A DNA stretch of 61,599 bases, filler included, from Hausera hauseri (GCA_046269625.1; 11 parts of 11 records of this genome joined end to end with filler, not necessarily neighbours in it), one strand, 5' to 3'; positions 38,916-43,918 are shown, counted from the first letter of the whole stretch. The notes: generated from the letters alone by a model not told the origin. Numbers and translations are program-made.

Positions 38916-39155
38916 AGTCAATTGACTCGTGCAGAAAATAAATTTCAACATAGTTCGAAGTTACCGAAGAAACCTATGATTATTGCAAGTAATGAGTGTC
39001 CGTGTCGTCATGTTAGTAGTATGTATGATGCGTTCATTGTCCGAAGATTATTGATTACATTTATAAAACCAATTCAATTCAGTATGCCCATTAATTTCGA
39101 TGATCTAGAAGTTCAGAGGATTTTACAGAATTTGCGTGATAATGTTTTTAAATAA
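38916..39155 (+). CDS. C-terminus of an NS1/E1-type SF3 helicase (5' truncated)
   Basis: TRAENKFQHSSKLPKKPMIIASN..DAFIVRRLLITF: B' lysine, motif C and arginine finger; AATAAA overlaps the stop. Confidence 0.65.
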   Translation, partial: SQLTRAENKFQHSSKLPKKPMIIASNECPCRHVSSMYDAFIVRRLLITFIKPIQFSMPINFDDLEVQRILQNLRDNVFK

Positions 39156-39443
39156 ATTTTGATTTCGTTACTACTTTGCTATGTTTTGCTTTTTTTTTCG
39201 TTTTCGGGTGTCCGGAGCAGCGCAACTAGGGGGCAGCGTAACTACCGTTATTTTTCTTTAGAAAGAATCATTGTAACTCAACCCTAGCTAGAGCGCACGA
39301 GCTTACGCAGTGGTCTGGGCACGGAGTGAGGGGCGAGATGGGCACGTACACAAATCCACAACTTTGGTTACATAAAAACATAAAAAATCCGTTTCCATGA
39401 CAACATAAACAAATAACAATAAGAACAAAGACAAATTTAAATT

Positions 39444-40112
39444 TTAAAACTTTATTATACAAACGACGACAGGCTCTGTATCAGCCGTATCACCACTTTC
39501 ACATCCATCATCAACAACTTCATCAATTACATCAGCAGGACGGGGACTGGCGACTGGACCAGCAACCAACTCATAACGATTAACATCAAGGGCTATCCGG
39601 AGGCGTGGAGAACCGACTGGACGCTGAACTATTCTGGGGTCCAACCACTTTCCTAAAAATAATAAAATACAAATAAAAAACTATATACCTTGTTGCCTCT
39701 TACCTCTTAAGGAAAAACAAATGAGGCAGTCATTCCCCCAATCATAAATTGGAAATGGGTTGTGACTGCACAAGATTTCCTGCCGATGGAGATTATCACA
39801 AATATCCATGGCACTGCTCGAAGGACAACTGTGGACATCTTGAACTCCATCCTCATCATCTGCAAAAACACGTAGTAAGGAGCACAAATGTATCGGATCC
39901 TCTATCTGGTACTGAGTCTGCATCTGCTCGTACAAACGTAATATCTCCTGCATCAGACTCAAATTATGTAAGCATAGTCGAGATACATGCTGGAGATCTG
40001 TAATCTCTTCCGGGGGAAGGTTATCTCTCACTTCAACATTTTTAACGTGGTCACAAAGAGCATCAACAGAATATTGCAACTTTAACAACTTAGATAAAAA
40101 TTCGCCTGGCAT
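39444..40112 (-). CDS. Spliced orphan protein, ~210 aa (exons 40112-39689, 39652-39444)
   Basis: 36-nt AT-rich GT..AG intron 39653-39688 removes a stop and fuses two ORFs in frame; AATAAA at 39451-39456. Confidence 0.7.
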
Positions 40113-40204
40113 AATTAAATAAAACAATAAAGTCAGAAGTATTTATTAAGCTATGTACACACATACACACGCATAAAAAATGAGCACCAATTAAATCACG
40201 ATAA

Positions 40205-41119
40205 TCAAACAGTGTGATGATTGTCAACTCCCCAATCAATGTCAATATCACTATAACGAACATAGGCAGGCTGAGTATCAATTTCAATGGGTGTCGCTCC
40301 TGTATTGAGGAAATCAACTGCCGGAGGAATATAACACCTTTCTGAGCACATATGGAAAGGGGAGAGTACATTGTTATGATAAGTAGGCCGATAATTGGCA
40401 ACATTAGATAAAACAGGGGGACTAACATCATCAAAAGACGGGGAATGGAACAGCTCATCATTTCGGTAGTCACCCGCAACCTCCACACTTAATGATTGAT
40501 TATTAGGGATATAAATTGGAATACCAACAGGCAAAGTATCTGTAACAGGTAATGGTATGGGAATTACAGGAGGCTCATGATACTCCTCAGCAAGACGGCG
40601 GAAATCAACCTTGTTCTCTGTCAAAAACCTATCCCTACTCTCGCCAGTCCTATACAGCATAAAATCCCCAAACTCATATAATAGACAACGTTTCATGCAC
40701 GCCTCCTTTTGGGACAAGTTTATCCTTCGAGGCCAAAAGGACGACTGCGAATTATAAGTAAATATTACAGGGACCGACGACGGGACAACAACACTCTTGT
40801 ACAACCCACGTATAGATCGATTATCATGTACGTGGTTGCACTGAACTATTGCTAGGAAAATATCAGGGCAAACCTCAGAAAATCCAACGTCGTCAAAAAT
40901 TATTAAGTCGTACGATGAAGACCACTCCGCAGGAGTGTCGTGCAAGCTATGGAGGATCAAAGGGTTCTTTCCATGGGAGAGAGCGAAGCATGTTTTGCCT
41001 ATATTGCTGCTCCCAAACAATAAGGCAGTATTTACACCTTGTTCTAAACTAAATTGGAGAGGGAATCGTAAATATATAGTTAGAATTGACAACAATTTTT
41101 GGTTTAAATTTCGACGCAC
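40205..41119 (-). CDS. rep: Rep SF3 helicase domain
   Basis: Walker A GSSNIGKT, Walker B IIFDD, B' IRGLYK, motif C VIFTYN, Arg finger MKRC; Pro-rich tail. Confidence 0.9.
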   Translation of the reverse strand: MRRNLNQKLLSILTIYLRFPLQFSLEQGVNTALLFGSSNIGKTCFALSHGKNPLILHSLHDTPAEWSSSYDLIIFDDVGFSEVCPDIFLAIVQCNHVHDNRSIRGLYKSVVVPSSVPVIFTYNSQSSFWPRRINLSQKEACMKRCLLYEFGDFMLYRTGESRDRFLTENKVDFRRLAEEYHEPPVIPIPLPVTDTLPVGIPIYIPNNQSLSVEVAGDYRNDELFHSPSFDDVSPPVLSNVANYRPTYHNNVLSPFHMCSERCYIPPAVDFLNTGATPIEIDTQPAYVRYSDIDIDWGVDNHHTV

Positions 41120-41806
41120 AATAACTTTGCAATAATTTATGGCGGGTCACAAACTCCGCTCGGTCTCCTTCCTTCATGATATTCATAGCTTCCGAGACCG
41201 AGGGAGCATCATCGAATAACCTATAGAGGGCCTTCCTACTATTATTGTCCTTATTTATGTCGATTGGGGGACTACCGAGCTGCAAGCAAAAAATATTCGG
41301 AGTGACATTCTTGTTGTGATATTTATAGACTGCATAAATGTCACTCCGAAAAGGAATTACATAAACAAAATTGAAAAGACATTTAAATCGATGCAAGCGC
41401 ATCGGATTACGCAGATAAAATAAAAAGTGAAGGTGGTGGAAACCAGATGGAGAAGTATCCGCCACCACCTTCATATAAAATTTATACAAAAGCGACAACC
41501 GAATATAATTGTTTACCAATAAACATAAATCGACAGTTTCATCGAATTTCATAACGGCCATATAGTGGCGAAAGGTTGCTCCCTCTGGTGGCTGTATCAG
41601 TTCATCGAGGGGATCTGGAAATCTTCCTTGCAATGCATTTGTATATTCATCATGGGATGCAAATAATCTTGTGTAGAGACCATTCCTAGCATTGTGGACT
41701 GTGAAATTCTCACGATAACCCTTTGATAAAATAATAATAATAAAATTATTACCAATTGGTTTCTTTCCTCACGAGACATAATTTGGCTGTTAGACGATTC
41801 GGACAT
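41049..41806 (-). CDS. rep: Rep HUH endonuclease domain, spliced (exons 41806-41753, 41720-41049)
   Basis: Motif II GFHHLHFLF, motif III YKYHNK; the 32-nt intron 41721-41752 supplies an ATG start in frame. Confidence 0.82.
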
Positions 41807-41951
41807 TTAGCATAAATGAGATAATGCATAAATATTTACGAATTTATACATCATCTCATATAATGCATAATATCATTCACAACAAATAATAATGAATAGT
41901 TACTCACCAAGCTTTGTATTTGAATTGAACATGAAAACATTCTACTGCTTT

Positions 41952-42020
41952 TTGAGAATGAGCAACCAATAATATTAGCTTCTATATATAGCTCTATTAT
42001 TATTGGTTGCTCATTCTCAA
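41952..42020. promoter_or_regulatory. Perfect 23-bp inverted repeat enclosing a TATA-like loop
   Basis: TTGAGAATGAGCAACCAATAATA (41952-41974) / TATTATTGGTTGCTCATTCTCAA (41998-42020); loop contains CTATATATAG. Confidence 0.85.
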
Positions 42021-42332
42021 TCTACACAATATCTTTTTCTGGTTACCTAAAAAAGTAAATAGTACACACTCACTACTTATAAACTACTTACATTAATAAG
42101 TAGTATAAATGAAATTAAATATTAAATAATTATTTCGGGTACATAATTGATTCGGAATAACAAAGCCATGAGTAATAGTACATTTTACACAAGGAACTTA
42201 TTCACAAAGCACATCTAAAAATAGATTTAGTCACACTCAATTCCTGGTATTAAGAAAAAATATAAAAAAATATTTTTTTAAATACTGAATTTGAGCAGAA
42301 ATAATAATAATAATAATAATAATTCTATTATT

Positions 42333-42400
42333 GCAGCGCCACTAGGGGCGGCGCCCCTAGAAAACCACCAAACGAGATGCGAAGCATCGAGGAGGTGGTT
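42333..42400. promoter_or_regulatory. GC-rich hairpin cluster, candidate origin
   Basis: CTAGGGGCG-G-CGCCCCTAG; AACCACC..GATGC-GAA-GCATC..GGTGGTT. Confidence 0.6.
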
Positions 42401-42714
42401 ACCCACCCAACCCACCCTAGAAAAACGGCTGCATACGATGGGAATCAAGTAAATTCCCGTAATGCTCAAAGCGGGAATATCAAAGGCCGTAAAGTATTTA
42501 ATACAGAATGAGAATGAGCATATATATATATACTCTTTCTCAAAATGCTATAAAGAATATATATATATATAAGTGCTCATATCCTGCTCATACTCAAGTT
42601 ATATGACAGACTTTTCGTGCTCAATTTAGATGGGAATTAATTAGGCAAATTGAGCACACATTGAGCGGCGTGGTTACTATAAATAGAAACAACTACACAC
42701 ATACACACACAATT

Positions 42715-43244
42715 ATGGAAGATACGCAAACAACTTGGGCAGATTTTAATGATACGCCTGAGAAAATGTCTCAGTACAGAGATCAGGTCAATCCTATAAA
42801 GTTTACAGGTAAAAGAGAAGATCAAAGGAAATATTGGGATAATTTCCAAGCTAAACAAGATGAAAATAAAAAACCGGACCCACATTATTTAATTTAGGTG
42901 CATATTCACCTGATGAATGGCAACATGAAGTTGAACAGTGGGAAACATGGAGAAAATTAGATGATGAATTAAATATAATAGAAAATATGAATAATAAAGA
43001 GTACAGAATAACTATTGTATTATTACACACATTATATTCATTAGATAAAGAAGTACAAGCATTACATAACAAATTATGGATGCAAAGAGAATTAAATACA
43101 ATGACAAATTTTATGAAAATGCCAAACTACCACATGGAAATGCAGAAAATGATACAAAAATTCCACATGGGAATGCAGAGTTTTTGGGATCAACATATGA
43201 CCGAATTAGACCCCGATCAAACAGGAGAGCAAAACGTGCTGTAA
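42715..43244 (+). CDS. Orphan protein of the rightward arm, split by an 89-nt intron (42809-42897) or a 1-nt frameshift
   Basis: TATAAATA at 42678, ATG at 42715; AG|GTAAAA..TTTAG|GT joins to the 42987 ORF in frame. Confidence 0.55.
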
Positions 43245-43918
43245 GAATAAAAAATCTATTTACAGTTTTAGGTAGAATATTACGAACTGCAGCACGAACA
43301 ATATCAGTTGTAACAAGTAGAACTTATTTACGAGTAACTGAACTTATAGCCCAAGCTAGTAGAAGACAACGTATTAATGCATTACATAAAAAATTTAAAG
43401 CACCAACTAGGCCATCCACAAGAGGATATAATGAAATGCCTAAGGACAATATATTTAAAGATGTACCACCAAGAGAAGGCTGGGTTAATCAATTTAGCAG
43501 TAGAGCAAGAGATACGACAGGTGATCTAACACAGAAATTATTAAAAATGAAACATGTACCATCAGGAAGTAATGGATTAAAAAAACCATTAATTAGAAAT
43601 GAGGAATTACCGGGGACAAGTACAGGTGGAGCAACACCATATGGTTCTAACGCAATAACTAATAAAAAAGATAATTTAATAACACCATCACATACACCAC
43701 AACATCTAAAAAATCCTGCATATATTGAAGAATCCCCAGTACATGGAGGATTGAAATGACGTAAAGAACAAGCAGATAATATTGCAGCATTAGATAAAGG
43801 TCAACCAATCACACGAAAACATAATCGAATAATTAATGCGAACGAAATAAGTAAAAAAAGAGGGGAGGAGCTAACCCAGCAAGACCTACGGGCAAATCCA
43901 TCACGCCAGCTCTCCCAG
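43076..43918 (+). CDS. Basic orphan protein, possibly structural; single TGA at 43757 then open to contig end
   Basis: 227-aa K/R-rich ORF; same frame stays open for 53 more codons. Confidence 0.6.

Follow-up and report, generated by a model that had tools for sequence, protein, structure and literature searches.

The window analyzed here, a 61,599-nucleotide (nt) stretch of DNA, consists of short contigs strung together by N spacers. One whole contig between two such spacers (positions 38916-43918; 5,003 nt, 36.5% GC) is part of a virus-like element that encodes two different superfamily 3 (SF3) helicases on opposite strands. The minus strand carries the helicase of a replication protein (Rep) of the type found in viruses whose circular, single-stranded DNA encodes Rep (CRESS DNA viruses), and the plus strand carries the end of a second helicase that matches the helicase of PEVE, a planarian element reportedly described in 2002. 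A first-pass annotation had proposed this arrangement and had named PEVE, with its Rep and E1-like helicase, as a parallel; comparison with both PEVE proteins bore the parallel out. On sequence grounds, we read the contig as about 5 kb of a PEVE-like virus-like element, with a CRESS-type Rep and an opposite-strand second SF3 helicase, that probably (roughly 80%) shares its ancestry and mode with PEVE. Because both contig ends (38916 and 43918) lie within open reading frames (ORFs), the genome is partial, as the annotation had stated, and no terminal direct repeat was found at the contig ends. The features that bear most directly on this reading are the following.

38916-39155, plus strand: C-terminus of the second SF3 helicase, 79 codons, cut by the contig start, with the end of motif B', motif C (PMIIASN) and the arginine-finger region (AFIVRR).
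40205-41146, minus strand: SF3-helicase frame of Rep (115.6 bits, E 1.7e-35), ending in a Pro-rich tail (about 125 codons).
41049-41768, minus strand: HUH-endonuclease and central-domain frame of Rep (43.3 bits, E 1.7e-13), predicted to be coding from 41720.
41908-41940, minus strand: predicted first exon of Rep, with ATG at 41940, a GTGAGT donor and a 187-nt intron to 41721; the phases match.

The motifs of a CRESS-type Rep are located on the minus arm where the first-pass annotation had placed them, and both Rep frames match a profile of the family. The HUH motifs HHLHF (41438-41424) and YKYHNK (41327-41310) are followed on the same strand by the helicase motifs GSSNIGKT (Walker A, 41014-40991), IIFDD (Walker B, 40903-40889), IFTYN (motif C, 40765-40751) and KRC (40693-40685, with the Arg at 40690). 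A phmmer search with the helicase frame retrieved 284 proteins at E ≤ 0.001; the 150 that were listed are approximately 27-40% identical to the query, save one low-complexity match. A profile of 123 full-length CRESS Rep relatives from this search was compared to 105 ORFs of the contig, and the next ORF after the helicase and HUH frames reached only 3.7 bits. The helicase frame had chosen the members of the profile, so the match of the HUH frame is the sole independent profile test. The circovirus-type Rep domain (PF02407) was present in 10 of 12 relatives scanned, 8 of them above the cut-off. The Rep ORFs gave nothing significant in Pfam or PHROGs, word-indexed protein searches returned no relative of the helicase frame, and scans of viral and metagenome contigs yielded no close relatives of the element. 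Eleven further loci, with matches limited to 27 residues around the P-loop, were discarded as presumably unrelated nucleoside triphosphatases. An alternative Rep start is predicted at an ATG at 41779, with a 32-nt intron.

The layout of PEVE type 1 was read from two sequences, L097 (large segment) and L104 (small segment). When viral contigs were scanned with the Rep alignment, 42 loci were returned, among them L097, whose 243-nt inverted ends provided a pattern that retrieved its partner, L104. We assigned them to PEVE type 1, as its large and its small segment, because six of the eight translations looked up are exact matches to NP_476521-NP_476526. The end of L097 is identical to the start of L104 (243/243) and the other ends agree at 240 of 243 positions, so that the two would close into a circle of 7,124 nt in which the small segment could be inverted. 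The PEVE Rep scored 195 bits on the 123-member Rep profile. As deposited (272 residues), this protein begins just before motif II. By eye, a motif-I-like stretch lies upstream in a frame that overlaps it (3548-4231 and 4084-4941 of L097), and the two could be connected by a GT-AG intron of 56 nt (4028-4083), which is in frame. The PEVE Rep annotation may, therefore, be incomplete, although the profile missed the upstream frame. A 314-residue relative of the PEVE Rep was also observed in contigs of public runs (P0277).

The plus-strand ORF end that converges on the Rep arm contains the three motifs anticipated in the first-pass annotation, namely ENKFQ (38934-38948), PMIIASN (38973-38993) and AFIVRR (39030-39047), and stops at 39153-39155. 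Gapless alignment of the 79-residue fragment with the PEVE helicase (NP_476522; residues 156-206 of the L104 frame) revealed 20 identities in 51 positions (39%, E 4e-7). None of 20,000 shuffles reached the score of this alignment (74 versus a maximum of 58), which was the best among 740 ORFs of the window. By comparison, the best score of the fragment was 52 on 49 loci carrying E1 motifs (at least one of which, L002, is not a papillomavirus) and 41 on 12 loci carrying densovirus motifs. On profiles built from these two sets of loci, the fragment aligned at the correct position and ranked second (E1, 5.8 bits) and third (densovirus NS1, 3.4 bits) among the 740 ORFs. A word-indexed protein search provided no longer relative of the fragment. 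The PEVE helicase matches both PF00519 (1.3e-12) and PF01057 (4.2e-12), and a profile of the PEVE helicase and the fragment, mainly PEVE sequence, matches structures of E1, NS1 and the Rep40/68 proteins of adeno-associated virus (AAV). Because its PEVE relative matches the E1 and NS1 families, we assigned the fragment to this SF3 branch. As far as sequence can tell, it is the end of an E1/NS1-branch helicase, and the nearest relative among those tested is the helicase of PEVE. Hence, the peptide at 38916-39155 has an SF3 match, and the proposal of two different SF3 helicases, one per strand, holds.

The remaining features of the contig are listed in order below.

39151-39156, plus strand: AATAAA overlapping the helicase stop, a predicted polyadenylation signal.
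39156-39443, no strand: spacer separating the two converging arms (helicase and Rep), crossed by variant contigs.
39444-39652, minus strand: predicted last exon of ORF3, Pro-rich and then acidic, with an in-frame acceptor and AATAAA at 39451-39456.
39653-39703, minus strand: predicted ORF3 intron of 51 nt (GTAAGA...TTTTAG, phases match); an alternative donor at 39688 gives 36 nt.
39704-40112, minus strand: first exon of ORF3, 136 codons, among them 8 for Cys and 7 for His.
40142-40147, minus strand: AATAAA after the Rep stop.
41941-42714, no strand: divergent control region with 9 TGAGCA repeats, some in inverted pairs around hairpins, and a TATA box at 42678.
41952-42020, no strand: hairpin of 27 bp (69 nt, 96% complementary), with the minus-strand TATA box in the loop and one TGAGCA per arm.
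42715-42808, plus strand: predicted first exon of the plus arm, with ATG at 42715 and a donor at 42809; its phase suits both downstream acceptors.
42898-43244, plus strand: ORF-A, a predicted second exon, acidic and Met/Gln-rich, with the acceptor at 42897.
43070-43759, plus strand: ORF-B, basic and Pro/Ser/Thr/Gly-rich, with a predicted acceptor at 43265 or 43271 and an in-frame TGA at its end.
43760-43918, plus strand: continuation of the ORF-B frame, open for 53 codons past the TGA to the contig end.

TATA-like boxes at 41990 (minus strand) and 42678 (plus strand) agree with the divergent promoters that had been proposed, and the AATAAA signals reported at 39151, 39451 and 40142 were also found, the first on the plus strand and the others on the minus strand. 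These two are the only copies of AATAAA on the minus strand, and each is located at a gene end; the A-rich plus strand has 13. The control region is also enriched in TGAGCA (9 copies in 776 nt versus 2 in the remaining 4,227 nt), and none of 5,000 shuffles yielded 9 copies of any GC-rich hexamer. The hairpin at 41952-42020 (-24.3 kcal/mol, z -10.1) is a candidate origin or promoter element; when considered as a precursor microRNA, its matches were far below threshold. Weaker values were obtained for a GC-rich double hairpin at approximately 42342-42400 (z -3.4) and a (TA)n hairpin at 42514-42580 (z -4.0). A second AT-rich hairpin was observed at 41803-41874, within the predicted first Rep intron. 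On the plus arm, the predicted donor is shared by the acceptors of ORF-A and ORF-B, which suggests alternative splicing. ORF-A has no relatives in Pfam or PHROGs, and ORF3 has none in Pfam, PHROGs, PDB or Atlas. ORF-B resembles the start of PEVE ORF2L in a weak 15-residue motif (9/15 identical, pairwise E 0.001, z 3.4). It carries PQHLKNPAY at 43697-43723, of which QHxxNPAY is common to ORF2L, and the stop follows 11 codons later. Lys and Arg make up 19% of ORF-B versus 17% of PEVE ORF2L.

Variant copies in one sequencing run provided information about coding and about the integrity of the contig. The run contained 141 pieces on 845 nt, 45 of them below 90% alike, and the summed depth rose to approximately 300, compared to 5-13 for near-exact pieces. 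Among the variant letters listed, 10 of 13 in the helicase end were silent, versus at most 2 in the other plus frames, as were 8 of 11 in the last exon of ORF3, 4 of 5 in its first exon and 4 of 4 in the HUH frame. Third codon positions held 9 of the 13 variants listed for the helicase end (P 0.009) and, for the minus arm, 14 of 20 (P 0.0009). The signal was weaker in the 5' ORFs of the plus arm (4/8 and 3/8 silent, with 5 of 8 listed letters of ORF-A at third positions). Because the variant letters are mostly silent, coding on both arms is under selection. Variant indels concentrate at 39669-39686, inside the predicted intron of ORF3.

The same run speaks to whether the assembly joined two unrelated viral pieces at 39155-39440, a chimeric join that the first-pass annotation had considered fatal to its own reading. 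Near-exact pieces at 39193-39324 (0 differences) and 39303-39615 (1 difference) overlap, one variant passes through 39146-39164 with indels, and others connect 39148 to 39384 and 39357 to 39598 (side 45). Variant contigs, therefore, tie the spacer to the helicase end on one side and to ORF3 on the other. These links speak against a chimera, as does the pairing of the two helicases, which reproduces that of PEVE. Although no single listed piece covers the whole junction between the helicase end and the Rep arm, the region is AT-rich and some variant joints have sides of 22-30 letters, we consider an assembly chimera very improbable. Scarcely more probable is the fusion, via a short shared sequence, of two separately replicating circles, one with Rep and the other with the helicase and structural genes. 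A 16-nt near-repeat flanks the Rep arm (39217-39232 resembles 42333-42348), pieces of one variant contig fall at 39148, 39384-39409 and 42237, and PEVE was deposited as two segments. However, the near-repeat is borderline against shuffles (score 27, the 95th percentile of 300), the side of the variant joint has only 26 AT-rich letters, a type that is often false, and the split in PEVE places the ORF2L arm with Rep rather than with the helicase.

The contig has two apparent breaks in its reading frames, neither of which was mentioned in the first-pass annotation: the two halves of Rep overlap out of register at 41049-41146 and a TGA at 43757-43759 interrupts the long plus-arm frame. In each of the 123 Rep relatives, 40-51 codons separate the central helix from Walker A; the number would be 46.3 here if the frames were colinear, whereas the in-phase GT-AG introns that could link the frames leave just 11-24 codons. 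Since no intron fits the linker length of the relatives, we describe the Rep break as a one-step frame offset. Either ribosomes naturally shift frame here, which would yield two forms of Rep, one short and one long, or the offset stems from damage to the contig copy or from an error in its assembly. A rival reading is that the contig is a decayed copy, integrated in the host genome and no longer self-replicating, of a multi-copy family similar to PIVE, the related element of Schmidtea mediterranea. To this alternative, which is compatible with the family assignment, we give rather less than even odds. Splicing does not explain the Rep offset, the TGA is in frame, one DNA run contains many divergent copies, and PIVE is reported to be integrated (PMC3198968). 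Two frame breaks and many variants are as compatible with a genomic family of the PIVE type as with a free population. Yet the breaks are just two in approximately 1,100 codons, and the promoters, splice and poly(A) signals and hairpins look intact. The observed/expected ratio of CpG (0.84) is inside the range of the other window contigs (0.54-1.33), no host flank was seen at the contig ends, and no listed variant has an indel at the Rep offset, where coverage was not shown. The contigs of the one run contained no joint from the contig end (43918) to its start (38916).

We favor a PEVE-like element of shared ancestry and mode, and several observations weigh against it. The helicase fragment is only 79 residues long and, when searched alone, had no significant match in Pfam, PDB, Atlas, plasmid and phage or word-indexed protein searches. 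Its controls were limited to the E1-motif and densovirus-motif loci. The PEVE Rep is only 28% identical to the helicase frame of the contig (E 5.6e-7), scored lowest among 154 relatives pre-selected for likeness to the contig Rep and, like the contig Rep, is a long branch in the Rep tree, which did not assign the element a position; a single clade for the two was neither established nor rejected there (approximately unbiased test, p-AU 0.547). The gene order also differs: Rep comes first on its arm in the contig, followed by ORF3, which is Cys/His-rich and predicted to be spliced, whereas ORF3L precedes Rep in PEVE. Neither ORF3 nor ORF-A matched any PEVE protein, and the contig has no counterpart of ORF3L. 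No canonical nonanucleotide stem-loop was found in the contig (TACTATTAC occurs at 42180 on the minus strand without a stem), nor any long inverted repeat beyond the 69-nt hairpin, with one of the two junctions covered; the origin could lie beyond the contig, in the missing part. The frame breaks count on the same side. Last, the variant evidence comes from one run (0.74 of sampled words), possibly the source sample, and the variant letters counted were those inside ORFs among the best-supported rows listed. Part of this pattern also suits an independent origin, in which a CRESS Rep element and a flatworm parvovirus-like NS1 were joined apart from PEVE and the likeness is convergent or modular. 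The contig Rep is not specially close to the PEVE Rep, the gene orders differ, and parvovirus-related NS1 sequences are reported to be widespread in flatworms (PMC10433990). We regard this origin as improbable, however, because the helicase C-terminus, the Rep family and the ORF2L motif opposite Rep all point to one 7-kb element, and because the score of the fragment on PEVE is far above its scores on E1 and densovirus NS1.

Nicking by an HUH Rep starts rolling-circle copying by the host polymerase, and the nuclease-less Rep40/52 proteins of AAV pump single-stranded DNA into capsids. Both activities suggest how a PEVE-like element with this gene content might work. The host RNA polymerase II would read two diverging spliced units from 41941-42714 that end at the AATAAA signals. 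The HUH domain of Rep would nick an origin in the control region, with the hairpins and TGAGCA repeats as likely binding sites, and the host polymerase would extend the nick while the Rep helicase unwinds the template, as in the rolling-circle replication of other HUH Reps. By analogy with AAV Rep40/52, the second helicase may serve as a packaging motor that pumps single-stranded DNA into capsids, a role that we favor at close to an even chance. Less probably, it could unwind a double-stranded stage, as E1 does in papillomaviruses. With PEVE as a guide, the missing 3-4 kb or so would contain the start of the helicase, what remains of the ORF2L-like gene and, if there is one, a capsid gene.

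The setting of the contig suggests a flatworm host. The neighboring contigs of the window are animal DNA, with a Gypsy-type element, a piggyBac transposase, Nckap1 exons and a SET1 gene. The latter, a SET1-type histone methyltransferase gene on its own contig (44019-48815), has introns of approximately 54-70 nt by eye. The best 21 of 120 listed matches to its SET domain are all from parasitic flatworms (77-82%), and in a quick tree without triclads it joined the parasitic flatworms (support 92), with Macrostomum outside. The element likely resides in a flatworm, its shared source with the SET1 contig being inferred from co-location only. Elsewhere in the window, 1-9214 holds Nckap1-like exons (PF09735) and, after them, the degraded remains of a Gypsy-type retrotransposon that include an integrase core, and a piggyBac-type transposase ORF of 577 codons (PF13843, E 1.2e-83) is located at 53192-57401. 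By eye, the region at 21576-27794 contains fragments similar to a protein-primed DNA polymerase B of the Polinton or adintovirus type, with several broken frames and no Pfam match. A degenerate simple repeat of the TTCG/TTCA type (approximately 4.6 kb, extreme AT skew) occupies 27895-32520.

PEVE has been near-solitary from 2002 on, and a distant element with its two-helicase design suggests a lineage that is likely old and thinly sampled rather than a one-off. A Rep that is 28% identical and accessory genes that were reshuffled while both helicases were kept suggest long-term selection on the pairing, which raises the question of why two SF3 motors are required in a small DNA element. The contig also bears on the proposal that parvovirus NS1 and papillomavirus E1 have flatworm helicases close to their root (PMC10433990), and it supplies probes for searches of flatworm genomes. 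If the host were a parasitic flatworm, the contig would add a DNA element to a group in which mostly RNA viruses have been described, an impression from two reports (PMC9241645, PMC10269781). More speculative, and in our view unlikely, is that PEVE-like elements make up an old and so far undescribed family of true DNA viruses of flatworms, both free-living and parasitic, with a rolling-circle Rep in a frameshifted short and long form, a separately encoded, nuclease-less E1/NS1-type helicase for packaging and a diverse active population in one host. If true, such a family would connect, as a living link, the CRESS viruses with the helicase branch of parvoviruses and papillomaviruses.

In its Rep, the contig is close to unclassified CRESS-DNA viruses with Reps of the GKTxFAxxH type (WAE43022.1, QTE03536.1; L062-L103), with which it shares the circovirus-like HUH domain, the central helical domain and the helicase motifs. 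Unlike the contig, these viruses are mostly 2-4 kb and have one helicase. One SF3 helicase per genome is a trait of the established CRESS families, from which the contig departs by carrying a second one from another branch; the first-pass annotation had likewise noted that such viruses normally encode one. Two contigs of the Rep family (L103 and L094) have long opposite-strand ORFs that resemble capsids of the RNA-virus type and look crucivirus-like by eye. No capsid gene, jelly-roll included, was found in the contig in Pfam and PHROGs scans, nor did its ORFs give anything significant against plasmid and phage libraries. The second helicase belongs, via its PEVE relative, to the same SF3 branch as papillomavirus E1, parvovirus NS1 and AAV Rep40/52. 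E1 and NS1 unite an origin-binding domain and a helicase in one protein and each is, to our knowledge, the sole SF3 helicase of its genome. In Parvoviridae and Papillomaviridae, NS1 or E1 is the sole initiator, VP or L1 genes encode the capsid and there is no CRESS Rep, whereas the contig carries one. The PEVE helicase (227 residues) is helicase-only like Rep40, without room for a nuclease domain, yet is encoded by a separate gene.

The comparison with PEVE accounts for more of the contig. One report names three members, PEVE type 1, PEVE type 2 and PIVE, in a tree listing whose columns may be misaligned; all come from triclad planarians, and Rep is assigned to the large segment and an NS1-like protein to the small one (PMC3198968). 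For PIVE, the listing gives PIVE_3p as the Rep and PIVE_1p as the NS1-like protein, each beside its PEVE counterpart (PMC3198968). The literature accessible to us, a scope that left out Repbase and most subscription journals, contained no further PEVE-like members, and none of the 41 other viral contigs of the Rep family has a PEVE-like second helicase. The depositors of PEVE labeled the gene beside the helicase a putative capsid; PEVE ORF1L has no PDB match, and its fold model (pLDDT 31.5) was unusable. The contig differs from PEVE in the extra ORF-A ahead of the ORF2L-like frame and in the N-terminal extension, Pro-rich C-terminal extension and frame offset of its Rep. In PEVE, inverted repeats of 243-251 nt flank two unique regions and none is seen at the helicase end of the contig, whereas the TGAGCA repeats of the contig are absent from PEVE. 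GCGAAGC and CA-repeat words shared with the PEVE inverted repeat were too short to count. The hosts may differ as well, for the SET1 neighbor groups with parasitic flatworms in a tree without triclads and PEVE comes from a triclad planarian. What the two elements have in common is a Rep of the CRESS type accompanied by a second, E1/NS1-like helicase, diverging arms with Rep on one and a basic ORF on the other (possibly ORF2L-like in the contig, by the weak motif described above), a probable flatworm setting and a similar GC content (36.5% versus 38% in the PEVE large segment). Further, inverted repeats flank the small segment of PEVE, so that in one of its two orientations the helicase would face the Rep arm head-on, as in the contig. 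The lineage is, as the first-pass annotation had it, unclassified, in that PEVE itself is unclassified, but its kind has been known since 2002. By these comparisons, the element is probably a distant relative of PEVE and PIVE and is not PEVE type 1 in the narrow sense.

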